NCBI RefSeq assembly: GCF_000017845.1 | Contig: NC_010546.1 | Span: 4,350,001-4,382,000 of the forward strand | DNA length: 32,000 nt | Source of the DNA: Crocosphaera subtropica ATCC 51142 | GTDB lineage: Bacteria > Cyanobacteriota > Cyanobacteriia > Cyanobacteriales > Microcystaceae | Direction: 5' to 3' | Part shown: in pieces, positions 798 to 29,788 of the stretch | How positions within the stretch are numbered: position 1 is the first letter of the stretch | Layout: the number at the start of each line of letters is the position of its first letter | Made by a program: the position numbers and the translations under genes | The notes under the pieces: generated by a model | What the model was told of the DNA's origin: nothing | What the model saw: only the letters and a program-made list of their open reading frames with translations | Database searches by the model: none

Positions 798-2174
798 TTA
801 ATTCTTGCTGTACCAACGTAACAAGACTCTCGCTAACCGTTGGGGATGGTGAGTCACTTTCGCCGTCATGGGATCTTCATCCATAATATTCGCTAAAACA
901 ATACGACATCCCAAGGTGGTGACATCTTCTCGGTCTAAAAATACCGGATGAGATTGTTCTTTAGCATAATGTTTTAATGCAGTGGTAGAAGGAGAAATCC
1001 TCTGTACTAAAACAGCATCAAAGATGCGTTGATCGCAAACACGATCAATGGCTTTAATATGATCAGCAACGGTATAACCGTCTGTTTCCCCTGGTTGGGT
1101 CATAATATTGCAAACATAAATACGAGGAACTTTTACCTTAGCTAAAGCTTCCCTAATTTCTGGAACAAGAAGGTTAGGGATAACGCTGGTGTAAAGACTG
1201 CCTGGACCCATAATAATGTAGTCAGCTTCGCCAATTGCTTGCAACGCTGCGGGTAAAGCGGGGGGACTTTCAGGAAAACAGCCAATTTCAGCAATTTTTC
1301 CCCCGGCTTCGGTAATATGGGATTCCCCTTCTACAAAGCGACCATCATCCAATCTAGCCCATAAACGCACATCACTGACTGTTGCTGGTAAAACTTTACC
1401 TCGAATGGCTAATACTTTAGAACTAGCTGCGATCGCCTTTTCAAAATCCCGTCCGGTAATGGCTGTCATGGCCGTTAAAAATAAGTTACCAAAACTATGG
1501 CCGTTTAAACCTTCTCCTGCTTGAAAGCGATATTGAAATAACTCCGTTAATAACTTTTCTTCATCCGCTAAAGCGGCCATACAGTTACGAATATCCCCAG
1601 GAGGTAAAACACCGATTTCTTCTCTGAGTCGTCCTGAAGATCCCCCATCATCAGCGACGGTAACAATGGCGGTTATATTGGCACTATACTGTTTTAATCC
1701 TCGTAATAGGGTCGATAGTCCCGTTCCTCCCCCAATAGCCACAATTTTTGGACCTCGATGTAAGCGACGATGGGTTAGGAGGCGATCAACCAATTCTTGA
1801 TCGCTATCGGGAAAGGCATCGGTAATTGAACCGACGGTTCGGCTTTGTCCCCATAATAATAAAAAGAGTCCCAATAATAAGGCGATAGGACCAGAAATAT
1901 AGCTAGGGACGTAGTTAGTAATGGTTTCAAGGAGTTGAGTGACTAACTCCAACAGACGATCCACTGGGGTAAGTTTCACCCAAATAGCTAAACCTAAGAC
2001 TGATAACAATAAACCAGTGGCACTAATGAGTAACCAACGTTTAACAAATAATCCAGGGGATAGCCATTTAAACCAACGATTAACTCGTTTCGGAGTTCGC
2101 TGGCCTACCATTGACCACCTTCGTTTTTTGGGGGAAAGTTTGCGTATTGCTTTTTGTAAAGGACTGATGGGCAT
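798..2174 (-). CDS. YvcK/CofD-like protein (UPF0052, gluconeogenesis-factor family) with N-terminal membrane extension
   Basis: 458 aa ORF. Motifs [39 protein letters not shown] and [18 protein letters not shown] are characteristic of the family. Two hydrophobic segments lie in the first ~110 aa. The exact start is uncertain. Confidence 0.85.
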
Positions 2175-2281
2175 AAGTCATGATCACCAGATGATTATTA
2201 TAGATGAAGTTTAATATAAGGGTTTATCGAAACATTAACACAAAAGTTGACTTTTATGCCTAAAAAACCTAACTGATCTGA

Positions 2282-2320
2282 GTTCGGGGTTAAGAGTTCA
2301 GGGTTCGGGGTTGGGTGTTC
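2282..2320. repeat. Degenerate heptamer tandem repeat (STRR-like): GTTCGGG GTTAAGA GTTCAGG GTTCGGG GTTGGGT GTTC
   Basis: Read directly from the sequence. About 5.5 head-to-tail 7-mers in an intergenic region. Confidence 0.7.
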
Positions 2321-2556
2321 ATCATTTGTCCATACTCCCTACATTCACGCAACCTTTGACTCAAACCACTCTAAAAAAAGAGTGAGTCTTGATATCAATA
2401 AGGATAGATGAACTAGCCAACAGTCTACCAAAGGAGGATTTTACAGAAGTTGACTTAATTTTAGACAAGCAAAAAAAAGTTTGGGTAAAAACATGAGAAA
2501 TAAAAATATCACAGCTAGAAGGAATAAGATAGTAGAAGTATTGATCTTTGAATACC

Positions 2557-2772
2557 ATGAATCCAGTTATAATTAATCAAAAGACAACCATAAAAGAACA
2601 AAAATTAATCTTACCTGGTTGGTATGATTGGCAACAGTTTATAGGAGTAACTTAGTTAATGAATTCTATAACCATTGATAAAGTTTCAATGACTTTATAT
2701 AATACTGATCAATTAACCAGTTCTCTATTACCTGATTTTAGTTGTAATATTAAAGAAATTTTTGAAAATTAA
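2557..2772 (+). pseudogene. Internally deleted Uma2-family (DUF820) endonuclease remnant with in-frame TAG
   Basis: A single frame reads MNPVIINQKTTIKEQKLILPGWYDWQQFIGVT-TAG(2653-2655)-LMNSITIDKVSMTLYNTDQLTSSLLPDFSCNIKEIFEN-stop. The N-terminal block resembles the ILxGVSWExYE start of Uma2 proteins. The end resembles the LLPGFxLxLxEIF terminus. The catalytic core is missing. A full-length paralog lies at 17101-17745. Confidence 0.5.
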
Positions 2773-2794
2773 TACAGATAGAGAGGTTAAGTAA

Positions 2795-3934
2795 ATGATA
2801 CGAAATTTAAGCATTAAAAATTATCGTTGTTTTGAAGATTTTTATGTTGATAGTTTAGCACAAGTTAATTTAATTGTTGGTGATAATAATAGTGGTAAAA
2901 CTAGTTTATTAGAAGCTATTTATCTTTTATTGGACAAATCCTATTATTACAAATTTCATAATAAAACAACTACTTTAATTAATCTATTAAAATTAAGAAA
3001 AGAATTTTTATCTTTAATATTAGAAGATGAAAAAAAATCAAACATTATTAAAGTATATCTTATTCCACATCTTTTTTATCAATATAAAATAAATAAGACC
3101 ATAGAGATTTTCTGTGATAATGATTTTTTCAGCAAAGTTGAAATAACAAATCTTAAACCAGAAAAATCAAAGTTTAAAAATACTCATTTATTAATAACAG
3201 ACGATGAATGCTTTAAAGTCAATTATGAATTTAGAAAATCAAACACCGAAAATAAAAATATTCGCGGACAAGCATTTTATGAAATTAATCAACAAGGAAC
3301 TTACATACAAGAAACTCCTGAAAATGCAAATCAGACTCGTTTAAATGGGATTGAAAGACTTATTATGTATACTCCTGATAGTATTTTTATGCCATTAAAT
3401 TATGATTATCTTGATGATGTCGAAAAAAACTGGGACTTAATTCAACTAACTCCAAAAGAAGATAAAGTGATAGAAGCTTTACAAATTATTAACCCTGATA
3501 TTGAAAGAATTGGCTTTACAGTTAGTCAATATACTAAACAGATAAGACTGAAAATAAGAGGGGAAGATCAACCCATTCCTTTAAGTAGTATGGGACAAGG
3601 AATGAATAGAATTTTAGGACTAATCACAACAGCAGTTATTCTTGAAAATGGAGTATTATTAATCGATGAAATAGAAACAGGATTACACTACGAATCACAA
3701 ACAGATATGTGGCGTTTACTCATAAAAACAGCACAAGAATTAAACGTACAAATCTTTGCAACTACCCATAGTTGGGACTGTATTTGTGCGCTTCAAGAAG
3801 CATTAGAAGACGTAGAAGATAACTCAGTTGGTAAATTATTTAGACTAGATAATAAATACGGGAAACTTAGGGCAGTAGAATATAAAGGGGATGAGATTTC
3901 TATTGCTGTTAATCAAGGAATTGAGGTACGTTAA
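2795..3934 (+). CDS. ABC-type / AAA_15-AAA_21-like ATPase (OLD, AbiLi/RloA, AriA, PtuA-like)
   Basis: 379 aa. Walker A GDNNSGKTS is at residues ~29-37, a signature-like LSSMGQGMNR follows, then Walker B VLLIDEIETGLH and H-loop-like ATTHS. A long K/N-rich insertion separates the two ATPase lobes. An RBS-like GAGAGG lies upstream. The gene is very AT-rich. Confidence 0.8.
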   Translation: MIRNLSIKNYRCFEDFYVDSLAQVNLIVGDNNSGKTSLLEAIYLLLDKSYYYKFHNKTTTLINLLKLRKEFLSLILEDEKKSNIIKVYLIPHLFYQYKINKTIEIFCDNDFFSKVEITNLKPEKSKFKNTHLLITDDECFKVNYEFRKSNTENKNIRGQAFYEINQQGTYIQETPENANQTRLNGIERLIMYTPDSIFMPLNYDYLDDVEKNWDLIQLTPKEDKVIEALQIINPDIERIGFTVSQYTKQIRLKIRGEDQPIPLSSMGQGMNRILGLITTAVILENGVLLIDEIETGLHYESQTDMWRLLIKTAQELNVQIFATTHSWDCICALQEALEDVEDNSVGKLFRLDNKYGKLRAVEYKGDEISIAVNQGIEVR

Positions 3935-4591
3935 ATGGCAAAAAGAAAAACATCACGTCAACCTCACCCACAGCAACTTTTAGTAGAAGGAATGAATGAT
4001 CTTCATGTTATTAGTGCGTTATGTCATAAATACCAAGTTCCCCAAACATTTTCGATAGAATTACCTAACGAAAACAAAACGCAAGGAGTAGAAGCATTAT
4101 TATTAGGTTTACCTATTAGATTAAAAGAACCTTATTTAAAAACATTAGGAATAGTGGTGGATGCGGATCAAGATTTACAAGCAAGATGGCAAGCTATTAG
4201 TAATAAATTAAAGTCAATTGGTTATGATAATATTCCTAAAAATCTTTGTTCTGAAGGTTGGATTTATGAACAAACAGAATTACCTAAAATTGGCGTTTGG
4301 ATTATGCCAAATAATCAATTAACTGGAAAATTAGAAGACTTTGTATCTTATTTAATTCCTGATGATGATCAATTACAATTAAAAGCCAACGAAATTTTAA
4401 ATGATCTTGAAACATTGAAAATTAATGGTTATAATAAAAAAGATAAAATAAAAGCTTTTATTCATACGTGGTTAGCTTGGCAGAAAAAACCAGGAATACA
4501 AATGGGACAGGCAATAACAGCGAATATATTAAAAAATAATCCATTGATCGCAGAAATTTTTATTAATTGGTTAAATCAACTCTATCAATAA
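3935..4591 (+). CDS. Small Toprim-like protein (DUF3226/DUF4435/RloB-type), partner of the upstream ATPase
   Basis: 218 aa. The ATG directly abuts the TAA of the ATPase gene (3932-3934 / 3935-3937). LLVEGMNDLHVISAL supplies a Toprim-type Glu and GIVVDADQD a DxD motif about 60 aa downstream. The family call is from motif recognition only. Confidence 0.6.
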   Translation: MAKRKTSRQPHPQQLLVEGMNDLHVISALCHKYQVPQTFSIELPNENKTQGVEALLLGLPIRLKEPYLKTLGIVVDADQDLQARWQAISNKLKSIGYDNIPKNLCSEGWIYEQTELPKIGVWIMPNNQLTGKLEDFVSYLIPDDDQLQLKANEILNDLETLKINGYNKKDKIKAFIHTWLAWQKKPGIQMGQAITANILKNNPLIAEIFINWLNQLYQ

Positions 4592-4722
4592 TAAATGATA
4601 ATTTTCAAAAACAATTCAATAAAATCTTAGCAAGCTTTATCTATCAATACTATGAATTCATTTCAAGAAAATGACCAACAATAATAAGTTGATTTGATAA
4701 TAGTTTAAACCATTAATAATTA

Positions 4723-4741
4723 GGTGGGCATTGTACCCACC
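4723..4741. repeat. GGTGGGCA-loop-CCCACC hairpin, copy 1 (14 nt past the pgk stop)
   Basis: The sequence ggtgggcattgtacccacc forms a 6 bp GC stem. Near-identical hairpins occur at 10921-10941 and 20815-20833, each just 3' of a minus-strand gene. Confidence 0.6.
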
Positions 4742-4755
4742 CAAGAATCATAAAA

Positions 4756-5985
4756 TTATGCTTCGTCTAAAGCAGCAATACCAGGCAAAGTCTTACCTTC
4801 TAACAGTTCTAAACTAGCACCACCACCGGTAGAAATGTGGCTCATTTTATCAGCAACCCCTACCTTTTCAACCGCAGCAACAGAGTCACCACCGCCGATA
4901 ATAGTTGTGGTTCCGGTACCGGTTAATTCTGCTAACGTATTAGCGATCGCTTCAGTTCCTTTGGCGAATTTTTCAAATTCAAATACCCCCATAGGACCAT
5001 TCCAAATCACTGCTTTACAGTCAGCTAAAGCCTTCTTAAACACTTCAACAGAGTCAGGACCAATATCTAACCCCATCCAACCGTCTTCGATGCTTTCAAC
5101 GCTACTAATTTTCGAGTTAGCATCCTTAGCAAAGTTATCCGCTAGAACTACATCAGTAGGTAGTAATAATTCTACGCCTTTTTCTTTAGCTTTTGCTTCT
5201 AAGGATTTCGCTAATTCTAACTTATCTTCTTCAACTAAAGACTTACCCACATTGAGTCCACGGGCTTTATAAAAGGTGAAAATCATGCCCCCACCGATGA
5301 GCAATTTATCACATTTATCTAATAAAGTTTCGATAACACCAATTTTACTAGACACCTTAGAACCGCCAATGATAGCAGCTAAAGGACGTTGGGGATTTTC
5401 AATAGCAGCTTGTAGATATTGAAGTTCTTTTTCAATTAAATAACCAGCAACACTCGGACTTAAATGATGGGTAACACCTTCAGTAGAAGCATGGGCGCGG
5501 TGGGCAGTTCCAAAGGCATCATTAACGTATAAGTCTGCGTTGGCTGCCAACTGCTTAGCAAACTCAGGATCATTAGCTTCTTCTTCTGCATGGAAACGAA
5601 GATTTTCCAATAAAGCAACCTGACCATTCTCTAGGTTAGCGATGGCTGCGGTTACAGAGTCACCCACACAGTCATCACACATAATGACATCTTGTCCTAA
5701 TAACTCCGATAAACGGGTCGCTACAGGGCTTAAACTCATACTTTCGACAACTTGTCCCTTGGGACGACCCATGTGGCTACAGAGGATAACTTTTGCCCCG
5801 TTGGTGATTAATTCTTTGATGGTAGGGAGGGCTGCCCGAATACGAGTATCGTCGGTGATGGTTCCATTGTCCAAAGGAACGTTAAAATCAACCCGTACTA
5901 ATACGCGCTTTCCTGCGAGATCCCCTTCTGATAAATTAGCAACAGTTTTCTTAGACACAGTCAATATCCTCCAATGATGGCTCAA
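4756..5985 (-). CDS. pgk: Phosphoglycerate kinase
   Basis: Full-length match to the PGK pattern ([32 protein letters not shown]). The true start is probably GTG at 5958, giving MSKKTVANL and preceded by GGAGGA. The ORF-track ATG at 5985 adds 9 atypical residues. Confidence 0.95.
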
Positions 5986-6740: not shown

Positions 6741-8096
<1,356 letters not shown>

Positions 8097-8125
8097 CTTA
8101 ATTAACTAAAGCGTGAGTCATTCCT

Positions 8126-8428
8126 ATGTCTTTATCCATTGAATGTAAAAAACGTCCCGAAAATGTTAAAGGTAATGCTTTACGTCGTGAAGGCTTAATT
8201 CCTGCTACCTTATACGGCCATAATGGCACAGAATCGATGCAATTAATGGTGGATCAAAAAGAAACTGCCTTAATGCTTAGGGAGGTAACGGTTGATGAAA
8301 CGGTAATCGATGTTAATATTCCGGATTTATCTTGGAATGGTAAAGCGGTTGTCAAGGAAATACAGGCACATCCTTGGAAACGCAACCTTATTCATCTTAG
8401 CTTCTGTTACGTTAAACCTGAAGCTTAA
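8126..8428 (+). CDS. rplY: 50S ribosomal protein bL25 (short form)
   Basis: 100 aa. KGNALRREGLIPATLYG and KEIQAHPWKRNLIHLSF match the L25 / 5S rRNA-binding domain. Confidence 0.85.
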   Translation: MSLSIECKKRPENVKGNALRREGLIPATLYGHNGTESMQLMVDQKETALMLREVTVDETVIDVNIPDLSWNGKAVVKEIQAHPWKRNLIHLSFCYVKPEA

Positions 8429-8447
8429 AAATTAACGGTTTAAAAAA

Positions 8448-8475
8448 GAGGTTAACAACCGTTAATCTCTTTTTT
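8448..8475. terminator. Bidirectional intrinsic terminator between convergent rplY and the pLGIC gene
   Basis: A 9 bp stem (8448-8456 gaggttaac with 8461-8469 gttaatctc, one G-U pair), loop aacc, a T6 run at 8470-8475 and an A6 run at 8442-8447 on the other side. Confidence 0.6.
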
Positions 8476-9490
8476 AAACCCAAAACGCAACAGCAGCTAA
8501 ACCCATAAATAAAACAGGGACAAACCATTTTAAAACATCGTCTAAATATAAGGCTAAATCACGATAACCCCCAGCTACTAAATTAATACTCGTAACCGAT
8601 TCGACTAAAGCCAAAAAGACTAATAACATCGACCCCACAATGACTTTATCTTCTGCGGTTAAATAGTTCATTTTAGGGAGTTCTTGCCGTAAAATAAACT
8701 GATAAGTAATTAAACTCACCATCGTTGCAGTGGCTAAGGTAATTTGGGGAATAATTTGTGTGGGTTCTAACCAAAATACTAAATCGGACATTAACACAAT
8801 TAAAGCGACGGGAAAAAGAACGCGCCAAGCATAAAAATGAGAATGTCTTTGAACTTTAATTTGATAGTCAAATCTAGCATATTCTTGTTGTTCGGGTTGT
8901 AAATAATGACCATGACTATAGGTAGTAATTTCTTTAATTGACCAGTTAATCAAGGAAATTTCATTACTAATTCCATTCAGTTCGTCTGCTTCTATGAAAT
9001 GAATTTCTTCAGGAGAATAACTAAAAGATATGAGTTCAACTTTGATAGTTTGTTCATCAAAAGGAAATCGTTTTAAATCAAGACTGGTGGATAATTGTCC
9101 ATAAAATCGCTGTCGATAAGTAACAATTCCTTGGGGATTAATATGTACAATTTCATCTAATTCTTTATCTAAATGACGTTGATTAATAATATGTAGATTT
9201 GGATGCCAAACTTGGTCAATTTTACATTGATAAGGGGAAGCATTAGGATTAGACAAAGAAACATCTAAACGGGAATCATACCATTGTAATCCTAAATAAA
9301 AATCAATATATACGGTTTGGTCTATCTCATTAATTTTGACCAAATCTAACGTATAAATCCCTACTAATATTTGAGTTATATCTGACTCATTACCAGGTCT
9401 GGGAATGGCTTGGTCATGGGGAATATACCAATGTTTTTGACTATTCTGGGTAACAGCTATTTGTATATTTGGGGGCGGTTTAATTGTCAT
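8474..9490 (-). CDS. Prokaryotic pentameric ligand-gated ion channel (Cys-loop receptor superfamily, GLIC/ELIC-like)
   Basis: 338 aa. The N-terminal beta-rich domain has YIDFYLGLQWYDSRL, WHPNLHIIN and FPFDEQTIKVELISF. Four hydrophobic helices follow (M1-M4) with a short M3-M4 loop. Confidence 0.8.
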   Translation of the reverse strand: MTIKPPPNIQIAVTQNSQKHWYIPHDQAIPRPGNESDITQILVGIYTLDLVKINEIDQTVYIDFYLGLQWYDSRLDVSLSNPNASPYQCKIDQVWHPNLHIINQRHLDKELDEIVHINPQGIVTYRQRFYGQLSTSLDLKRFPFDEQTIKVELISFSYSPEEIHFIEADELNGISNEISLINWSIKEITTYSHGHYLQPEQQEYARFDYQIKVQRHSHFYAWRVLFPVALIVLMSDLVFWLEPTQIIPQITLATATMVSLITYQFILRQELPKMNYLTAEDKVIVGSMLLVFLALVESVTSINLVAGGYRDLALYLDDVLKWFVPVLFMGLAAVAFWV

Positions 9491-9683
9491 GAATTTTTGA
9501 TATAGTTAACAACTCATTGTCAAAAGTTGTTACTAAATATTCTAACTTCTAGCCGATATTATAAAGCCGAACCTTAATGAAAGCTAAAAATTTTAGATTA
9601 CTTTTTGACCTGGACTGTATTTAATATTAAGAACTGTCTTTAGGCGTTGATCCTGATAGATTATAAATGAGTCTTAATATTGC

Positions 9684-9826: not shown

Positions 9827-9987
9827 TTTCGTGAAAACAAGAATATTTTGCTTTTTATAGATTGTATTCCACAATAAATGGTTATTTAAGGGATTAAAAT
9901 ATTAATATTATTTAAAATACTTGACTTTCCCCCCCTATGCTATTTTGCTATCATATCCTATCAAAATTTTCCCATTGAGGAGTGAAA

Positions 9988-10122
9988 ATGACCTTAAAGT
10001 ATAGTCTCGCTGTTGTTACCGCAGTTAGCTTAACTTCCTTGACAGTCCCTGCTCAAGCTGCCTTAGTTAATATTCCTTATTGCGTTAATTGTTTATCGAT
10101 CGCCTGTCAATGGATTGTATGA
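9988..10122 (+). CDS. Candidate 44-aa secreted Cys-containing peptide precursor
   Basis: Below the ORF-track size cut-off. GAGGAG lies 8 nt upstream of the ATG. The product MTLKYSLAVVTAVSLTSLTVPAQA/ALVNIPYCVNCLSIACQWIV has a Sec-type signal with an AQA-A site and a 20-aa mature part with 3 Cys. Confidence 0.35.
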   Translation: MTLKYSLAVVTAVSLTSLTVPAQAALVNIPYCVNCLSIACQWIV

Positions 10123-20841: not shown

Positions 20842-23403
20842 TTATTTAGGAACCACAAAGTTAACTAATTTTCCAGGAACAACAATCACCTTTTTAACCT
20901 CTTTTCCGTCTAAGTTACGTTGACCAATATCTGATTCACGGGCTAATTTTTCTAACTCCTCTTTACTGGAATTAGCAGGTACTTGAATCGTTCCCCTTGT
21001 CTTACCCATAATTTGAATCACTAGGGTAATTTCATCTACCACTAAAGCATCGGGATCAACCTGAGGCCAAGTTTCTAAATGGATTGAAGTTTCATGTCCC
21101 AAATTATGCCATAATTCTTCAGCAATATGAGGAGCAAAGGGTGCCAGTAAAATCAATAAAGTTTCAATTCCTTCTTGATAAACCTCAGAATTAATACATT
21201 TAGCATCATTCAACGCATTACTTAACTTCATTAACTCAGAAACTGCCGTATTAAATTGATAGTCCCCTTCTAAGTCTTCGGATATCTCTTTAATAGCAGT
21301 ATGGATGGCACGTCTTAAGTCTTTTTCTTCCTTGCTTAACTCCTTGTTACTAATAACTTCGCCTTGCTTTTTTTCATAGCCATTAACCAAACGCCACACC
21401 CGATTTAAAAAGCGAAATTGTCCTTCTACATCCGCATCATCCCATTCTAAATCTTTCTCAGGAGGTGCTTTAAATAGAATGAACATTCTAGCCGTATCTG
21501 CCCCATATTTTCCTAATACTTTTTGCGGATCAACTCCATTATATTTAGACTTAGACATCTTCTCATAAAACACCTCTAAATCATCTCCTGTATCCGGATC
21601 TTTGGGACTTTCAGGGTTCACTTTATCCACAGGAATATACTTACCGGTTTTGGGGTTTTTATAGGCCATTGCTTGTACCATTCCCTGTGTCAAAAGACGC
21701 TTAAACGGTTCATCCACATTCACTAAACCTCTGTCTCGCAATACTTTAGTAAAAAAGCGAGAATATAAGAGGTGTAAAATCGCGTGTTCAATACCACCAA
21801 CGTATTGATCTACATTCATCCAATCATTGGCTTTTTCTAACTTAAATGCTTCTTGATCATTCATTGCATCCGTGTAACGTAAATAGTACCAAGAAGAGTC
21901 AATAAAAGTGTCCATTGTATCCGTTTCACGCTTTGCTGGTTCCCCACAACTGGGACAAGGAACGTTGATCCAATCTTCCATTTTTGCCAAAGGAGAAGCC
22001 CCACGCCCCGTAAATTCCACATTTTCGGGCAATTTCACAGGTAAATCTGCATCAGGAACCGCCACAGTTCCGCAACTGGGACAATGCACCACTGGAATAG
22101 GACAACCCCAATAACGTTGCCGAGAAATTAACCAATCTCGCAGACGATACTGTATCCTTGCTTTACCGTAACCCTGTTTCTCTGCATAGTTAATAATAGC
22201 CGTTTTGCCTTCAGTGGACTGCATTCCGTTAAATTCACCCGAATTGACCATAATTCCTGGTTCGGTATAGGCTTCTGTTAACGTAGGGTTATTATCCTCG
22301 GAATTTTCAGGAACGATCACCACTTTGATCGGTAACTCTTTCTCCGTTGCAAACTTAAAGTCACGGGTATCATGGGCCGGTACACCCATCACCGCACCGG
22401 TACCATATTCATACAATACATAATCTGCAATCAAAATGGGGATTTCTTCACCATTAAAGGGGTTAACAGCAGTCCCTCCGGTTAATATCCCTCGTTTGGG
22501 TTTATCTTCTGCTGTGCGTTCGATTTCGCTTTCGTTGGAAACCTCTTCAATAAACGCTTCTACGGCTTCTTTTTGCCCCTCTGTAGTCACTTTGGGGGTC
22601 AAAGGGTGTTCAGGGGCCAAAACCACATAAGTCACCCCGTAAACCGTATCCGGACGGGTGGTAAAGACGGCGATTTTTTCCTCACTGCCCTTGACAGGAA
22701 ACTCCAAATATGCACCGACAGACTTACCGATCCAGTTTTCCTGCATTAATTTAACACGGTCGGGCCATCCGGTTAATTTATCCAAGTCCGTTAATAATTG
22801 TTCTGCATAGTCCGTAATTTTAAAGAACCACTGACGCAACAGTTTTCGTTCTACTTTAGCACCCGATCGCCAGGAATACCCCTCGCTGTCCACTTGTTCA
22901 TTGGCCAACACCGTTTGATCGATGGGGTCCCAGTTGACTGCTGCTTCTTTTTGATAAGCTAACCCTGCTTGATAAAATTGCAAGAATAACCATTGCGTCC
23001 ATTTGTAATAGTCTGGGGAACAGGTGGCCACTTCTCGATCCCAGTCGATAGATAGTCCCAAGGTTTGCAGTTGTTGCTTCATTTGGGCAATATTTTTATA
23101 AGTCCAGTCTGCGGGGGGAATATTGCGATCGATGGCTGCATTTTCCGCCGGAAGTCCGAACGCATCCCACCCCATCGGATGTAAAACTCGGTATCCTTGC
23201 AATCGTTTGAGACGGGCGATAACATCTGTAATAACATAGTTGCGAACATGGCCCATGTGTAGGTTTCCAGATGGGTAGGGAAACATGGATAAGGCGTAAA
23301 ATTTGGGTTTATCGCTGTTTTCTGGGGTTTTGTCTAACCCCTGGTTAACCCAGTCTTGTTGCCATTTTTGTTCGATCTCTGCTGCGTTATATTGGGACTC
23401 CAC
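20842..23403 (-). CDS. leuS: Leucyl-tRNA synthetase
   Basis: 853 aa. The HIGH motif [11 protein letters not shown] and the KMSKS motif are present, with full-length class Ia architecture. Confidence 0.97.
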
Positions 23404-23623: not shown

Positions 23624-24805
23624 ATGGAAAAATTAAGTTGCTCAATGATAGTAAAATCTGCTTGTCGTGGCTATGTTAACGGTAAAACGCAGATTTGGAA
23701 TTTAACTCTTTCTGTATCAGAACTTCCTAAAGACTTGCCCTACGGACCTAATGCCAGAAATGCAACCTTGGATGCAAAGCCAGCAAAAGCAATGCTGAAA
23801 ACTTTAAAAGAAGAACCAGAGAAGTTTGTTCTTTATAATAGTGGCATCATGCTGATTGCTAACGAAATTACGGCTAAAAGAATTGAGGGAGGAGATTTTC
23901 AGGTTACTTTAGAACTTGAGATCCCAACAGCAGAATATGAAGGAGATTTTTTAGGTCATGGTGTGATTAATGGGGGTCATACTTACAAAGCTATAATGCA
24001 CGCACTATACGGCCAACATAAACCAAGAGAATCCTATCCCAATGTTAATAATGCTCATGTTCAAGTATCAGTAGCAGTGGGTATTAATGAAGAAGAAGTT
24101 TCTCAAATAAGTCGCGCTCGTAACCTCAGTTTATCAGTTCCTGTATATGCTTTAAAAAATTTAGATCATATATGGCAACCCATAGAAAAAGCACTACCTG
24201 AAGAATACCGTCAAAATGTAGTTTTTAAGCCTAATGAGGATGATGAATTAGACGAAAAAGCTGATTATGATGTGACCGATCTTGTTCGTCGGTTAGCACT
24301 CATCAATAACAAACTATTTCCTTTCCGTGATGATAAGCATCCAATCAAAGCATATACTTCAAGAGGAAGTCTTGTCAGTTCTTGGAAACAAGAAGATTAT
24401 CAAGATATAATTCCTCTGCTAAAAGATGTTCTTTGGTTAGAAGAACAAATCATCAAACGACACGAAAATATCAATGGCAAAGGTCAGGGAAAAATTGTCA
24501 TCACCAAGGTTAGTGGTTGTACAAAAAAACCGATGAAATTAATAACAGGTTATACAACAGATAGTTTAACAGTGGGTGATATTTTTTATATGCCAGTTAT
24601 TGCAGCTTTTCGCGTGTTTGTGAAAGACGGTGAATGGCTCGAATCTATTGACAAATTATGGGGTACATGGGGGAATAATTTGGTTGATCGCCTATGGGAA
24701 ACGTACAGAAGTGAAGGGCGTAGTAGTGCATCTGCTTTTGCTCGCTCCAAGTCAACTTGGTCAAGCTTAACCAATATGGTGGCTATGCAGTTTGTTCAAA
24801 TCTAA
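23624..24805 (+). CDS. AIPR-like abortive-infection protein
   Basis: 393 aa. LPYGPNARNATLDAKPAKAMLKTLKEEPEKFVLYNSGIMLIA, GVINGGHTYKAI and VSVAVGINEEEVSQISRARNLSLSV follow the NxR...TL...F..NNGIT / VNGxQT / ..I..ATN.Q pattern of AIPR proteins. This is motif recognition, not a search. Confidence 0.6.
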   Translation: MEKLSCSMIVKSACRGYVNGKTQIWNLTLSVSELPKDLPYGPNARNATLDAKPAKAMLKTLKEEPEKFVLYNSGIMLIANEITAKRIEGGDFQVTLELEIPTAEYEGDFLGHGVINGGHTYKAIMHALYGQHKPRESYPNVNNAHVQVSVAVGINEEEVSQISRARNLSLSVPVYALKNLDHIWQPIEKALPEEYRQNVVFKPNEDDELDEKADYDVTDLVRRLALINNKLFPFRDDKHPIKAYTSRGSLVSSWKQEDYQDIIPLLKDVLWLEEQIIKRHENINGKGQGKIVITKVSGCTKKPMKLITGYTTDSLTVGDIFYMPVIAAFRVFVKDGEWLESIDKLWGTWGNNLVDRLWETYRSEGRSSASAFARSKSTWSSLTNMVAMQFVQI

Positions 24806-24922: not shown

Positions 24923-25699
24923 TTATTCCTCTGTATTCAAAGATAAATTAAGTTGCTCAATTTCTTGTAAATTCAATCCCGTTAGTTGAGAAATAACCTC
25001 CAGATTCATGTGATTTCTGAGCATATTTAAAGCAATATTTTTGATTGCTTGTTTTTGTCCTTTAACTTCCCCTTCATGGAAAATTTCTTGATAGATAACT
25101 GACTCTTTCATAATGTCACTCCTAAGAATTCGTTTAATACTGTCTTGATCTAATTTTAACCCAGATAGAATAGCTGTGGATGCACTGATATCACTTTGCC
25201 TTTGTTGATTAGGCATACTATCAATAATAGCAGCAATTTGGGTTAACGTTTCTCTGGGGTTATCGGTACAAGTTAGTACAGCAAAGGGTAATAAACCTGA
25301 GTTATTCAGAAAACTATCCGTGTTTTCTTCCCACAGACGAATAACATTAAATTGATGACGTAAATTAGTTAATTCAAAAGTATTTTGATACACTAATTCT
25401 GAATTACTCGGTTTCAAATAAATCACCACTTGATACATTTCTTTGTTAGGATAGCGACGATAAACCCGTAAACGATAGTCAGTCATCCTAAAAGGTATGT
25501 CTTCATCAGGTGAGGTTTGAAACTCAATATGTAAGACAATATCATCTGATTGCAAAAAGATTAAAGAATCTGCTCTAATAGGATTTAAAGATAGTTCTGT
25601 AGGTTTTAATTCCGTAAGTTCGATGGGTTCATTTAATAACCAGTTAGCAAAGTCACGGCTAAATCTTTCTGCTAGAAACTTACAAACGTTATCATACAT
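24923..25699 (-). CDS. Rpn-family recombination-promoting nuclease / PD-(D/E)xK putative transposase
   Basis: MYDNVCKFLAERFSRDFANWLL..., ADSLIFLQSDDIVLHIEFQTS and YRLRVYRRY are characteristic. The probable start is the ATG at 25699 (the track starts at TTG 25705). Confidence 0.75.
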   Translation of the reverse strand: MYDNVCKFLAERFSRDFANWLLNEPIELTELKPTELSLNPIRADSLIFLQSDDIVLHIEFQTSPDEDIPFRMTDYRLRVYRRYPNKEMYQVVIYLKPSNSELVYQNTFELTNLRHQFNVIRLWEENTDSFLNNSGLLPFAVLTCTDNPRETLTQIAAIIDSMPNQQRQSDISASTAILSGLKLDQDSIKRILRSDIMKESVIYQEIFHEGEVKGQKQAIKNIALNMLRNHMNLEVISQLTGLNLQEIEQLNLSLNTEE

Positions 25700-25748
25700 C
25701 AGCAATAAGAATAAGTTGACAAGATTAGACCATAATATAGCGTTTCTA

Positions 25749-26867
25749 AATGAGTCGTGAATAAAAAAAGCTCTGTTTAGGTAAAATTAAAAGAGTAATT
25801 TCAAAAAGAAACAAACTCATGATAATAGACAATAAGGAGAAAATTGAGCTAATTAAAGAGTTTCTTGAAAATTCATCAAACGGGAGAGAGACTCAAAGAG
25901 CTTTAGCGGTAAAGTTAGTGCTAGAAGGCTATCGTTATGAAAGAGTCTCAGAAATTTTATCTGTGTCACTAGGATTTATTAGTAAATGGGTTAATGCTTT
26001 TAATTTTGGGGGTATAAATGGTTTAAAATAAGGATACAAAGGAAGTAAAAGTTACTTAACAAATCAAGAACGTACCGAGATAATTGAGTGGCTAATTGAA
26101 CAAAAAACCTGGGATATTTCTGAACTAGAAGTTTATCTAATTGAGAAATATGATGTGGTTTATCAATCTCTTCAAAGTTATTATAAGATTTTAAAAGAGG
26201 CGAAAATTTCTTGGCAAAAGGGGCAACAAATTAATCCTAGATATCATGAAGAAGTCACTCAAAAAAAAACCAAGAAATAGCGCAAATTCTGGAAAATAGA
26301 CGAGAGGAAATAGATTCAGGAAAGCTGATAGTGTATATAGTTGATGAATGTCATCTTCACTGGGAGGATATTTGCGGATATCTATGGAACTTAATAAAAG
26401 AACCCTTAAAAATTCCTCTTTTAAATCCTAAAGAAAGACAGACATATTATGGGGCATTAAATTTATTAACTCAAGAATTTATTTTGCTTCCTTATCAAAA
26501 AGGAAATGGAAAAAACACGGTAGATTTTGTCCAACAATTACAGAAAAAAAATCCCGAAGCTAAAACCTTATGGATTTGGGATGGAGCCAGTTATCATAGA
26601 GGAAAAGAAATGCAAAAGTTTTTAGCTAGAGAAAATCAAGATTTGTCACCAGAAGAATGGCGAGTAACCTGTTGTCTTTTTGCTCCTTATTCCCCTCAAG
26701 AAAATCCCGTAGAAGCAATTTGGTTACAACTCAAAACTTTACTGAGAAGATTTTATAGATTTGGGAAAAATTTTAAAATTGTTAAACGTCTTTTTCAACT
26801 TTTTGTTGAGTTGAAACTATTCAATCTTCCTAATTTTAAAAACTACGAGGCTTTTTCACGATTCAGT
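25749..26867 (+). mobile_element. Decayed IS630-family element
   Basis: The inverted repeats are AATGAGTCGTGAA (25749-25761) and TTCACGATTCAGT (26855-26867). TA lies on both sides (25747-48 and 26868-69). Confidence 0.6.
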
Positions 26868-26870
26868 TAG
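25819..26870 (+). pseudogene. IS630-family transposase with an in-frame TAA and a frameshift
   Basis: The HTH part spans 25819-26031. An in-frame TAA lies at 26029-31, and the frame then continues GYKGSKSYLTNQERTEII.... A frame change occurs at the A9 run (26261-26269). The DDE part YIVDECHLHW...APYSPQENPVE spans 26331-26870. Confidence 0.7.
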
Positions 26871-27097: not shown

Positions 27098-27665
27098 TTA
27101 TTCCTCTGTATTCAAAGATGAATTAAGTTGCTCAATTTCTTGTAAACTTAATCCTATTAATTTAGCAATCTCCTCCATATTCATGTTATTTCTGAGCATA
27201 TTTAAAGCAATATTCCTCGTAGCTTCTTGTTTACCTTTTATCTCTCCTCTTTGTTCTCCTCTTTTTTCGCCTTGAATTTCCCCTTCATGGAAAATTTCTT
27301 GATACATCACTGATTCTTTCATGATATCGCTCCTAAGAATTCGTTTAATACTGTCTTGATCTAATTTTAACCCAGATAAAATGGCTGTGGATGCACTAAT
27401 ATCACTTTGCTGTTGTTTATTGGGCATACTATCAATAATAGCAGCAATTTGGGTTAAGGTTTCTCTAGGGTTATCGGTACGAGTAAGTACAGCAAACGGT
27501 AATAAACCTGAGTTATTCAGAAAACTATCTGTTGTTTGTTCCCAAAGACGAATAACATTAAATTGATGACGTAAATTAGTTAATTCAAAGGTGTTTTGAT
27601 TCACTAACTCTGAATTACTAGGTTTCAAATAAATCACCACTTGATACATTTCCTTATTGGGATGG
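27098..27665 (-). pseudogene. 5'-truncated paralog of the Rpn-family gene
   Basis: It aligns with 24923-25445 at roughly 90 percent identity by eye. It has an extra GEKRGEQRGEIKG repeat and lacks the N-terminal ~75 codons. Homology ends near 27665. Confidence 0.7.
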
Positions 27666-27862: not shown

Positions 27863-28540
27863 ATGAAACCTTATTCTATTGATTTACGTCAGAAAATTAT
27901 TGAAGCTTATCAAAACCAAGAAGGTTCACAAAGACAGTTAGCTAAACGCTTTAAAGTTAGTCTTAGCTTCACTCAAAAATTATTGAAGCGATATCGCGAA
28001 ACCAACGAGATAGAACCTCGTAAGAGTGGAAAAGGATTTATTGCCAGACTAGAACAGCATACACAGGTGGTTGAGAAATTAGTTGCTGATAATAATGATA
28101 TCACTTTAGAAGAATTACAAAACTCTCTTGAATTAGAAACAGGGGTCAAACTATCTATTAGTAACATTTGTCGTTTTCTACAAAGAAAAAAACTGACTCG
28201 AAAAAAAGCGAGTCAAGCTGCAACTGAAAGAGTCCAAGGTCTTCGATTTAACTATTGGAAACAAGTCAAAAAAGTTGACATGGAAAATTTAGTATTTATT
28301 GATGAAATGGGAGCCAATCTAGCTTTAGCTCGTAGATATGCTCGTTCTCTTCAAGGGACTCGTGCCTATAGTCAACAGCCTTTTTACCCTGGACAACATT
28401 TAAGTTTAATTGGAGCGATTGCTCTTAAAGGTTTTATAGGAGGAATGACTCTAGAAGGAGGAACAAATGGTATAGCTTTTCAAGTTTTTTTAGATAAAGT
28501 TTTACTACCCCAACTTTGGCCAGGTGCTTGTGTAGTAATG
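27863..28540 (+). pseudogene. IS630-family transposase (second subfamily) interrupted and 3'-truncated
   Basis: MKPYSIDLRQKIIEAY...VFIDEMGANLA...PGACVVM is then broken by the IS982 insertion, exactly at the conserved VVMDN block. Only ~30 nt of possible continuation follow the insertion. Confidence 0.75.
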
Positions 28541-28825
28541 ACCTGAGTTCGATATAAGATAATCGGCTATAATTTAGTCACTGAAAGGATTACAGGCATT
28601 TTCGATTATTTACCAGTTCTCAATTACTGTTGATTAATGATAATGAAATGAATTAGAAACAGAATCAAGGTAAGATATTGATTCTGTGACAGAAACAAGC
28701 CAAGACTTATCCCAAGCCTTCGATTTAGCCAAACAAATTTTAAGACATAAAAAATCAGTCAGAATATCTCTAGCTAAATTTCTTTCTAAATTATATAATC
28801 TTCCTGTAAAACCAGAAGATTTACA

Positions 28826-29788
28826 ATGATAGAAATAGAAACCTTATTTTATCAAATTGATGATTTTTGTCAAGCCTTTTCTCCAATTTTTGAGTCTCAT
28901 CTTCTTCCCCATAAAGTTGTAAAAAGAAAAAGAAAATATAAATTATCTTTAAGTGAAGTAGCTACAATAGTCGTTTATTTCCATTGTTCAGGCTATCGAA
29001 ATTTTAAAGATTACTACGTTAAGTATGTCTTAAAACATTTTCAATTAGAATTTCCAAAATTAGTTAGTTATAATAGATTTGTTGAATTAATTCCATCAGT
29101 TTTAATGCCTCTTATACTGTATCTTAACACAAGAAAAGGAGAAGTAACAGGAATTAGTTTTATTGATTCTACAAGATTACCTATTTGTTCCAATAACCGA
29201 GCCACTCGGAACAAAGTTTTTGAAGGGTTAGCTAACTGGGGAAAAAGCTCAACTGGTTGGTTTTTCGGCTTTAAGTTGCATTTAATTATTAATGATAAAG
29301 CGGATGCGACCCAACCGCCGTTGTACGGCGATTGGAACGCGCACCAAGAAGGCGAACTTTTATCTTTCCAAGTAACTCCAGGTAATGTGGATGATAGAGT
29401 TCCAGTTAAAGATTTAGTTGAGGAACTTTTTGGAAAACTATATGGTGATAAAGGTTACATTTCTTCTCCTTTATTTCAGAAGCTTTTTGAGAAAGGAATC
29501 AAATTTATTACTCCTTTTAGGAAGAAAATGAAAAACCGTTTATTACCCATGATTGATAAAATCATGTTGAGGAAACGTTCTTTAATTGAAACCGTTAATG
29601 ACCAACTTAAAAATATTTCCCAAATTTCTCATTCAAGACATAGAAGTGTTTTGAACTTTATGGTTAATATCATCGCTGGTTTAATTGCTTATACACATCA
29701 AGAGAAAAAGCCATCTCTTAATCTTGATCATGAGGAATATACTTACCTTCCCAGCATGTTAACTCCTTCTGAAAGTCTCTTATTTTGA
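28826..29788 (+). CDS. IS982-family DDE transposase carrying a 17-aa in-frame insertion
   Basis: ETLFYQIDDFCQAF, FIDSTRLPICSN, GKSSTGWFFGFKLHLIIN, PGNVDDR, GDKGYIS, SLIETVNDQLKN and HSRHRS. A 47-codon upstream ORF (GTG 28686) overlaps the ATG by ATGA. Confidence 0.85.
   Translation: MIEIETLFYQIDDFCQAFSPIFESHLLPHKVVKRKRKYKLSLSEVATIVVYFHCSGYRNFKDYYVKYVLKHFQLEFPKLVSYNRFVELIPSVLMPLILYLNTRKGEVTGISFIDSTRLPICSNNRATRNKVFEGLANWGKSSTGWFFGFKLHLIINDKADATQPPLYGDWNAHQEGELLSFQVTPGNVDDRVPVKDLVEELFGKLYGDKGYISSPLFQKLFEKGIKFITPFRKKMKNRLLPMIDKIMLRKRSLIETVNDQLKNISQISHSRHRSVLNFMVNIIAGLIAYTHQEKKPSLNLDHEEYTYLPSMLTPSESLLF
29300..29350. other. GC-rich hairpin micro-insertion H3 (51 nt, in frame) in the IS982 transposase gene
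   Basis: gcggatgcgacCCAACCGCCGTtgtACGGCGATTGGaacgcgcaccaagaa encodes ADATQPPLYGDWNAHQE between IINDK and GELLSF. It is about 60 percent GC by hand count, within a ~30 percent GC gene. Confidence 0.7.

Follow-up and report, generated by a model that had tools for sequence, protein, structure and literature searches.

A coupled ABC ATPase and DUF3226 gene pair of Crocosphaera subtropica ATCC 51142 as a candidate split OLD-type phage-defence system

A stretch of 32,000 nt from Crocosphaera subtropica (formerly Cyanothece) ATCC 51142 (contig NC_010546.1, positions 4,350,001 to 4,382,000; referred to here as the window, in whose own numbering all coordinates are given) includes a cassette of two genes, one for an ATP-binding cassette (ABC)-type ATPase (gene 1) and one for a DUF3226 protein (gene 2). 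The cassette is of PADLOC type PDC-M38, and it is probably (rough probability 0.6) a two-gene split OLD system, in which the ATPase would gate a nuclease for phage defence. This reading draws on the observed domain identities of the two proteins, their strict pairing and translational coupling, their conservation and distribution, and the turnover of the cassette in relatives.

The cassette consists of the following features.

2795-3934, plus strand: gene 1, ABC-type ATPase, 379 amino acids (aa), from the open reading frame (ORF).
2930-3409, plus strand: hypervariable, AT-rich insert of gene 1 (residues 46-205), GC content 0.23, delimited by conservation and by the AlphaFold2 (AF2) model.
3923-3937, plus strand: coupling junction, read directly, with GAGG at 3923-3926 inside the codons for the C-terminal E-V-R, the stop codon TAA at 3932-3934 and the start codon ATG at 3935-3937.
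3935-4591, plus strand: gene 2, DUF3226 protein, 218 aa, from the ORF.

An earlier note, made from the letters of the window alone, had described the two genes as translationally coupled and as a candidate defence system. The stop codon TAA at 3932-3934 does abut the start codon ATG at 3935. Both proteins belong to a listed defence candidate, PDC-M38, with A and B matched end to end, adjacent, and in the expected order and strand. PDC-M38 was defined in the supplementary cassette table of Payne et al. 2024 (bioRxiv 10.1101/2024.01.29.577857) as one of 145 untested candidates, nominated on the grounds that homologues occur within loci for BREX, DISARM or type I restriction-modification (RM) systems. 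Gene 2 is 100% identical to cce_4218.

The DUF3226 protein and its likely relationship to Toprim nucleases

Gene 2 matches Pfam DUF3226 (PF11536) over profile positions 2-208 of 208, with an E value of 1.4e-73 and a score of 247.6 bits (cut-off 27). It also matches the PADLOC PDC-M38B model PDLC04624 (E = 1.6e-77), with residues 1-217 aligned to profile positions 1-218 of 220. Its earlier assignment to partners of the DUF3226/DUF4435/RloB type thus holds for DUF3226, which is full length, but not for the others, as no match to AriB, AbiLii, RloB or DUF4435 was obtained at E ≤ 1. The two segments that had been read as Toprim-type motifs, LLVEGMNDLHV (residues 15-25) and GIVVDADQD (residues 72-80), are present, and the Toprim-like nature of the protein is supported by a fold match, by weak co-linear profile matches, by a match to the Glu motif of AriB and by the spacing of conserved residues.

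In the AF2 model of gene 2 (predicted local distance difference test score (pLDDT) 81; predicted template modelling (TM) score (pTM) 0.78), an alternating β/α core is followed by a helical bundle. The layout is that of a Toprim domain, with E18 placed after the strand at 13-17 and D76-A-D78 at the end of the strand at 70-76. The top Foldseek match in the Protein Data Bank (PDB) was 6nk8_B, the C-terminal catalytic region of the Burkholderia pseudomallei OLD protein (BpOLD), with a probability of 0.99, an E value of 6e-3 and TM scores of 0.47 and 0.49. AriB, the Toprim nuclease of PARIS, was third (probability 0.41), and RecR and topoisomerase I appeared lower down. When PDB chains were searched by sequence, using the single sequence, a consensus and a profile, the only relevant match was AriB, at E ~0.6 and in the first motif alone. 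Foldseek comparison of the model with viral structures gave no significant match.

Secondary Pfam matches among 83 family members were to OLD-like_TOPRIM (16 members), DUF4435 (5), Lipoprotein_18 (4), OLD-like_TOPRIM_1 (3) and RloB (1). Four of these families are of the Toprim type, with OLD-like_TOPRIM and DUF4435 the commonest, and Lipoprotein_18, the third in number, is unrelated. The DUF4435 matches were weak, and the single RloB match had an E value of 0.035. The cross matches that were sampled, to Toprim and OLD-like_TOPRIM in the Citrobacter locus L088 and to DUF4435 in P0372, are co-linear over the region from the Glu to the DxD motif.

The profile of the DUF3226 family places the LLVEG motif on residues 23-27 of AriB, and E26 of AriB is the catalytic glutamate, the E26A form being inactive (PMC11464382). 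A genuine AriB-like protein from Pseudoalteromonas matches PDC-M38B (E = 6.5e-4) and Pfam DUF3226 (E = 0.031), in both cases at the Glu motif.

The 83 sequences conserve six residues of gene 2, E18, D22, D76, D78, E134 and K173, each of which is found in 78-83 of them (E18 in 82, D76 in 83 and D78 in 78). Relative to E18, the other five are at +4, +58, +60, +116 and +155, respectively. The two-metal site of BpOLD is formed by E400, E404, D455, D457 and E508 with the catalytic K562, at offsets of +4, +55, +57, +108 and +162; E508 comes from the helical domain, on its first helix, and the catalytic region has ~205 residues (PMC6755086). DUF3226 is of about the same size as this region. The six residues of gene 2 are hence a candidate OLD-type two-metal site.

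Membership of gene 2 in the Toprim superfamily is likely but not proven, because no match to a Toprim family passes its curated threshold. We predict that the protein is a nuclease with a Toprim domain and a helical bundle, similar to the C-terminal catalytic part of OLD.

Ahead of the first strand, residues 1-12 of gene 2 (3935-3970) form a basic, Pro-rich tail with the consensus MPKxxKPxKPKPQQ. The tail is conserved among homologues from cyanobacteria, and the model predicts it as disordered (pLDDT <50).

The ATPase and its variable insert

Full-length Pfam matches of gene 1 to AAA_15 (E = 4.4e-54) and AAA_21 (E = 2.6e-22) bear out the architecture that had been proposed for it. In PADLOC, the PDC-M38A model PDLC04611 (E = 1.8e-82; residues 1-379 on profile positions 1-383 of 383) and the AbiLi model PDLC02336 (E = 7.3e-66; residues 1-379 on positions 1-340 of 340) are both matched end to end, and the AriA models match at 8e-52 and 2.8e-29. 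The AriA match is not specific to PARIS, because the AriA models are near to generic Pfam domains. None of the NCBIfam models reached its own cut-off with gene 1.

All of the ATPase motifs that had been pointed out are present, namely Walker A GDNNSGKTS (residues 29-37), the signature-like LSSMGQGMNR (263-272), Walker B VLLIDEIETGLH (287-298) and ATTHS (322-326). In the family alignments, the quoted motifs of both genes fall on columns that are invariant or at least 90% conserved. G29, K35 and T36 of Walker A, G267 and G269 of the signature, D291 and E292 of Walker B and H325 of the H-loop are invariant in 57 homologues, and gene 1 should therefore be an active ATPase. Its AF2 model (pLDDT 78, pTM 0.84) gave Foldseek matches to PtuA (Septu, retron I-A), Rad50 and the heads of SMC proteins at E ~1e-13.

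The K/N-rich insertion noticed earlier is seen at residues 46-205, where K and N make up 21% of the residues, as compared with 10% in the C-terminal half. The frequency of the commonest residue per column is 0.21-0.41 in the insert and 0.81-0.84 in the ATPase core. Comparison of gene 1 with its counterpart in a metagenome-assembled genome (MAG) of the same genus (L003) gave identities of 96% for the N-terminus, 24% for the insert and 72% for the C-terminus, and nucleotide similarity to L003 disappears between 2953 and 3454. The insert is β-rich in the AF2 model and includes no long coiled coil. ATPase paralogues of 233 aa that are devoid of the whole 46-205 insert were found in C. subtropica (P0131, on a 429,701-bp contig) and in C. 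chwakensis (P0129); both retain Walker A, the signature motif, Walker B and the C-terminal EVR.

Inserts in ABC ATPases have been suggested to determine specificity (Payne et al. 2024, bioRxiv 10.1101/2024.01.29.577857), and the trigger surfaces of AriA are weakly conserved (Burman et al.). For these reasons, the insert at 46-205 may be the sensor or specificity region and is the best candidate for it. Its hypervariability fits a sensor and was counted in favour of the split OLD system.

Pairing, coupling and distribution

In all 79 informative loci, the ATPase gene is directly upstream of the DUF3226 gene on the same strand, and in 77 of the 79, across phyla, stop and start are separated by -4 to +4 nt. 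As in the window, the two proteins of each of the 79 related loci are encoded by separate ORFs. Across phyla, the last residues of the ATPase are a conserved E-[V/I]-R, E377, V378 and R379 being invariant in the alignment of 57 homologues, and GAGGTxCGx precedes the ATPase stop codon in most cyanobacterial and Chloroflexota loci. The codons for E-V/I-R also provide a GAGG resembling a Shine-Dalgarno sequence, 8 nt ahead of the start of DUF3226, and they may be constrained at the level of the protein, of translation, or of both. In loci with two intact genes, both are under purifying selection, with dN/dS values of 0.15-0.22 (0.15-0.22 for gene 1 and 0.21 for gene 2).

The proteins had been thought unusually small. 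They are in fact of ordinary size, because ATPases of 340-410 aa and partners of 202-231 aa are the norm in the family.

For the DUF3226 family, searches found 678 clusters at 90% identity and at least 2,224 representatives at 50% identity (E ≤ 1e-3), and its members are nearly all stand-alone proteins of 200-230 aa. When each species was represented by a single genome, at least 590 species proved to have a relative, with a patchy distribution over many phyla, including Cyanobacteria, Chloroflexota, Bacteroidota, Planctomycetota, Verrucomicrobiota, Acidobacteriota, Armatimonadota, Pseudomonadota and Campylobacterota. A tblastn search with gene 2 against 50,697 phage records gave no match.

The pair also occurs on small plasmids (4-14 kb) of Acinetobacter, Citrobacter, Klebsiella and Plesiomonas. 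On plasmid p4_060092 of Acinetobacter cumulans (L087, 9.7 kb) and a 6.4-kb ColE-type plasmid of Citrobacter freundii (L088), the two genes overlap by 4 nt and are among very few cargo genes, with tet(39) beside them in one of the two. These copies bear on a different explanation, according to which the pair selfishly ensures its own maintenance, as an addiction or stabilisation module resembling a toxin-antitoxin system, in which the ATPase neutralises a toxic nuclease and the genes persist on plasmids and islands without meaningful phage defence. Such a module would account for a pair that is one of the few cargo items of very small plasmids, is tightly coupled and, in relatives, has toxin-antitoxin genes (HicAB and PIN) next to it, and also for decay of the nuclease before the ATPase in two lineages (see below). 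However, the hypervariable insert and the embedding of homologues in RM, BREX and DISARM loci suit the sensing of an invader better, and the related ATPase plus Toprim pairs that have been tested, PARIS and AbiL, do defend. PARIS is itself both a toxin-antitoxin and a defence system, so the two readings are not exclusive. A module that serves addiction without meaningful defence is considered distinctly unlikely.

Turnover in relatives and the leuS hotspot

The cassette is not universal in its context among related cyanobacteria but is present, lost or degraded, as expected from the earlier proposal of a patchy distribution. In C. chwakensis CY0110, the gene order is leuS, GIY-YIG, DUF2283, HicBA, Uma2-B, ATPase, DUF3226, Uma2-A, pgk, and gene 2 has a premature stop at codon 37. 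The MAG locus L084 has a deletion of ~390 bp inside gene 2 next to an intact ATPase gene. The nuclease has thus decayed first in two lineages (CY0110 and L084), in keeping with a nuclease that does harm when its partner is missing. In Cyanothece sp. BG0011 (L081, ~9883-10068), whose pgk is 97% identical, all that remains between two intact Uma2 genes is ~26 nt from the start of gene 1 fused to ~60 nt from the end of gene 2, with an overlap of 7 bp at the joint. As both gene ends persist as a deletion scar, this locus represents loss of the cassette and not an empty target site. C. watsonii has no cassette at pgk, and no C. watsonii protein is among the best 120 DUF3226 matches.

A decayed Uma2 nuclease gene had been reported just upstream of the cassette. 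The remnant is real, but it consists of the fused stubs of two Uma2 genes and not of one.

2548-2772, plus strand: fused Uma2 (DUF820) stubs, identified from remnant ORFs, with the N-terminus of Uma2-A at 2548-2655 and the C-terminus of Uma2-B at 2659-2772.

The stubs themselves are too short and have no Pfam match. Intact orthologues of 201 and 189 aa are present in the related loci L002 and L001 and match Pfam Uma2 at E values of 7e-15 and 4e-35. In relatives the cassette is flanked by an island, of which the stubs are the remains.

In MAG L003 and Gloeothece PCC 7424, the cassette directly follows leuS, which in the window is at 20842-23403 on the minus strand. Relative to CY0110, the segment 2687-8475 is co-linear and the segment 20810-23056 is inverted. 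Compared with CY0110 and Cyanothece sp. BG0011, ATCC 51142 carries a segment of ~18 kb in inverted orientation, with breakpoints at 2687 and 20810, both within the former toxin-antitoxin/Uma2 island, so that leuS is split off from the block of cassette and pgk. The ancestral order, as seen in relatives, is leuS, cassette, pgk, and the inversion of ~18 kb brought the cassette beside cofD. The earlier picture of an insertion wedged between the cofD/YvcK-like gene and pgk is not upheld, because relatives have the leuS-cassette-pgk order and the present context was made by the inversion; the cassette is an old resident of the leuS flank that was relocated. Nor are the two neighbours convergent core genes, as had been stated, because the minus strand carries both the CofD/YvcK-like gene (798-2174; Pfam CofD, E = 6e-121) and pgk (4756-5985).

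The leuS flanks of relatives carry HicAB, Uma2, GmrSD/NsnA-like, type IIG RM and PARIS-like genes. In BG0011, the flank includes a GmrSD/NsnA-like gene together with a restriction gene of the Bpu10I type, and in L093 a type IIG RM enzyme. In Gloeothece citriformis PCC 7424 (L090), a PARIS-like pair at 2660-4907 on the minus strand (AriA, 7e-26; AriB, 9e-6) and a PDC-M38 pair at 7940-9657 on the plus strand are on opposite sides of leuS. From these gene contents, and from the AIPR-family and transposase genes near leuS in the window (see below), the leuS flanks look like a hotspot for defence genes and mobile elements in related cyanobacteria. The adjacency to leuS was also considered as a hint of a function related to tRNA-Leu and was rejected, as it is confined to one related group of cyanobacteria and the synteny of a hotspot suffices to explain it.

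The base composition of the cassette differs from that of its surroundings. The AT-rich patch described previously was recovered, with a GC content of 0.20-0.34 over ~2400-4800 and of 0.41-0.45 in the flanks, and the GC content at third codon positions (GC3) is 0.156 and 0.161 for the two cassette genes versus 0.33-0.40 in cofD, pgk and purA. The stretch free of HIP1 sites was also confirmed, at 1437-4942, but it is not informative, because 14 sites in 32 kb give a probability of ~0.2-0.3 for such a gap; the argument for foreign origin from the missing HIP1 was dropped for this reason.

Composition and turnover are relevant to a further explanation, a RecF-RecR-like DNA-repair pair, in which an ABC ATPase and a small Toprim protein would act on host lesions in a housekeeping or accessory role. 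The N-terminus of the ATPase matches RecF and Rad50 models, and RecR is among the weak fold matches of gene 2. All the NCBIfam matches are far under their cut-offs, however, and a patchy distribution with loss and pseudogenisation in close relatives, a foreign composition (GC3 0.16), carriage on plasmids and a hypervariable ATPase insert all argue against a repair function. We know of no counterpart in RecR of the conserved OLD-type two-metal nuclease residues. A repair role is thus very improbable.

Proposed mechanism and alternatives

As a split OLD system, the cassette would function as follows. Translational coupling would cause both proteins to be made in a fixed proportion, and the ATPase would bind the nuclease and hold it inactive. 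The variable insert would detect a phage-derived cue, and ATP binding or hydrolysis would then license the nuclease. Cleavage of nucleic acid would proceed by a two-metal mechanism, with E18, D76 and D78 at metal A, D22 and E134 at metal B, and K173 in addition. Phage replication would be halted, probably at a cost to host growth. We infer complex formation, sensing, the substrate and the anti-phage function by analogy. For the substrate, DNA has about even odds and is slightly favoured over tRNA or another RNA as in PARIS, which is plausible but somewhat less probable. An OLD- or Gabija-like holoenzyme, or a release mechanism other than that of PARIS, acting on DNA is favoured marginally over a PARIS-like tRNase, because the active site is OLD-like and a coiled coil of the AriA type is absent.

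The main alternative is abortive infection strictly of the PARIS type. In this case, an ATPase scaffold sequesters the nuclease, and an anti-restriction protein of the phage leads to its ATP-dependent release; the nuclease then dimerises and cuts a specific host tRNA, and translation stops. The PARIS mechanism itself is documented (PMC11464382). The ATPase matches the AriA and AbiLi profiles, the catalytic Glu motif is common to DUF3226 and AriB, the coupled two-gene split is like that of ariAB (the genes of the Pseudoalteromonas pair also abut), and degradation of the nuclease next to an intact ATPase in two relatives is as expected for a toxic free nuclease. Against this, gene 2 matches neither DUF4435 nor AriB, and AriB, at a probability of 0.41, is a worse fold match than OLD. 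The DUF4435 region of AriB is linked to AriB dimerisation (Burman et al.), and gene 2 cannot hold a region of that size, because it has 218 aa as compared with the 308 aa of AriB. The ATPase model does not include the coiled-coil insertion that builds the AriA hexamer. The PARIS-like and PDC-M38 pairs that together flank leuS in PCC 7424 suggest distinct roles for the two. A strictly PARIS-type mechanism is therefore considered unlikely.

Several points weigh against the split OLD system proposed here. The Foldseek comparison of gene 2 reached a TM score of only ~0.48, with no match at E <1e-3, and the sub-threshold matches to Toprim families have been mentioned above. Alignment by hhalign of the DUF3226 profile with AriB covered only 35 columns (probability 51%, P = 1.6e-4), with a single AriB-like sequence on the AriB side, as a scan of viral contigs with the Pseudoalteromonas protein found no relatives from which to build a profile. 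The mapping of the six residues onto OLD is based on spacing and predicted secondary structure and not on superposition. On the side of the ATPase, AriA is absent from the best 50 Foldseek matches, and the model is without a coiled coil of the kind that builds the AriA hexamer; for these two reasons, sequestration and release of the PARIS type may not apply. At the distant locus L092 it is the ATPase and not the nuclease that is split, possibly by an assembly error. The direct neighbours of the cassette in ATCC 51142 are housekeeping genes. A text search of the literature found no paper that names DUF3226, PDC-M38, cce_4217 or cce_4218 or that tests the pair, and the related HEC-01 gave no defence in a first test (Payne et al. 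2024), although protection was reported in a later study.

A more specific form of the split OLD proposal is rather doubtful. The DUF3226 pairs might be a distinct minimal class, in which the β-rich insert is a swappable receptor for phage cues, and an ATPase without the coiled-coil scaffold of PARIS directly switches a 200-aa Toprim plus helical nuclease, as a holoenzyme or by non-PARIS release. The substrate would then be neither the tRNA-Lys of PARIS nor bulk DNA, and the 233-aa paralogues would be regulators or decoys.

Other features of the window

Two further sites adjoin the cassette.

2675-2703, plus strand: promoter-like site TTGATA-17-TATAAT, 92 nt upstream of gene 1 and within the Uma2-B remnant, from a consensus scan (11 of 12 matches).
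4720-4744, minus strand: GC-rich hairpin between the cassette and pgk, from a terminator scan.

The promoter-like site is a pattern match only; the scan of the region gave 9 sites against 16 expected from shuffled sequences and hence no enrichment. The hairpin is an intrinsic-terminator-like site of pgk, and transcription of the cassette may stop there as well. At the borders of the cassette, the repeat search gave only short AT-rich chance matches and neither att-like nor inverted terminal repeats, and Rfam and tRNA scans found no RNA genes in the window. The intergenic region between cofD and the Uma2 stubs has two tandem copies of a G-rich 21-nt unit at 2270-2311 (TAACTGATCTGAGTTCGGGGT / TAAGAGTTCAGGGTTCGGGGT).

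Beside the 5' end of leuS is a gene of the AIPR (abortive infection phage resistance) family (23624-24805, plus strand; PF10592, E = 1.5e-48) that has no PADLOC match. It is followed by transposase genes of the IS630 type (DDE_3, apparently fragmented) and the IS4 type (DDE_Tnp_1) at 26331-26870, 27863-28546 and 28826-29788. ORFs of 260 and 183 aa (24923-25705 and 27098-27649, both on the minus strand) match the same part of L003 (~615-1730) and have no Pfam or PADLOC match; they are probably a duplicated gene in a region rich in insertion sequences. A homologue of prokaryotic pentameric ligand-gated ion channels is encoded at 8474-9490 on the minus strand (Neur_chan_LBD, 1.7e-22; Neur_chan_memb, 8e-9) and is conserved in BG0011.

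Implications

DUF3226 is a widespread family, with members on plasmids of clinically relevant Acinetobacter, Klebsiella and Citrobacter, and the text search found no paper that names it. For this domain of unknown function, the analysis provides a testable proposal, a detached OLD-type catalytic module coupled to an AbiLi-like ATPase, together with six candidate catalytic residues and one candidate sensor insert as handles. At ~1.8 kb, the cassette is a compact model for the gating of Toprim nucleases by ABC ATPases. Crocosphaera, a marine nitrogen fixer, gains a candidate immunity pair and a documented hotspot at the leuS flank with rapid gain, loss and rearrangement. If a distinct split OLD class proved true, it would be a new branch of ABC-ATPase immunity, whose small size makes it experimentally tractable.

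Comparison with known systems

The cassette belongs to the known class of systems that combine an ABC ATPase with a Toprim nuclease, which includes OLD, Gabija, PARIS, AbiL/RloAB, MADS3-4 and HEC-01. It shows no structural difference from PDC-M38, although the copy in ATCC 51142 is outside any RM, BREX or DISARM locus.

OLD proteins (P2 Old, the class 2 OLD proteins of Burkholderia and Xanthomonas, and GajA of Gabija) likewise unite an ABC ATPase with a nuclease of the Toprim type. The Toprim and helical region of BpOLD is the best fold match of gene 2, is of nearly equal length and has an E/D(E)/DxD/E/K set of similar spacing that would be equivalent. OLD, however, carries both modules in one polypeptide, whereas the cassette has two genes, and gene 2 has no above-threshold match to Pfam OLD-like_TOPRIM. 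The cassette also differs from Gabija in having no helicase partner of the UvrD/GajB type.

PARIS is similar in being a two-gene operon in which the gene for an AAA_15/21 ABC ATPase precedes a distinct one for a Toprim nuclease, with the LLVEG motif that holds E26 of AriB in common. However, AriB is a DUF4435 protein (PF14491) of 308 aa, whereas gene 2 is a DUF3226 protein of 218 aa with no match to PF14491 or the PADLOC AriB model at E ≤ 1. AriA is of ~55 kDa, and its coiled-coil insertions form a hexamer that holds AriB, in a system with an Ocr-type trigger and cleavage of tRNA-Lys; gene 1 has 379 aa, a β-rich insert and no predicted coiled coil. PARIS and PDC-M38 pairs coexist in one genome (PCC 7424). 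The partners listed in the PARIS phylogeny (Burman et al.) are TOPRIM-Old, DUF4435, RloB and DUF4276, and DUF3226 is not among them. An unnamed two-gene Nostoc system cited by the PARIS authors may belong to the DUF3226 family.

AbiL is related through the full-length match of gene 1 to the AbiLi hidden Markov model (HMM; E = 7.3e-66), and the AbiLii and RloB partners are also predicted to be Toprim/OLD-like nucleases. Gene 2, in contrast, has no match to AbiLii or RloB (PF13707). HEC-01 (Hma-embedded candidate) likewise pairs an ABC ATPase with a separate TOPRIM protein under the same proposed logic, and the HEC-01A HMM matches gene 1 at 1.4e-15, but its protein families are different and gene 2 does not match HEC-01B.

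The architecture and logic are thus already known from OLD, PARIS, AbiL and HEC-01, and the type itself is in PADLOC, which lowers the novelty of the cassette and leaves no conceptual surprise. New here are the residue-level mapping onto OLD, the statistics of strict coupling, the hypervariable insert and a corrected evolutionary history.

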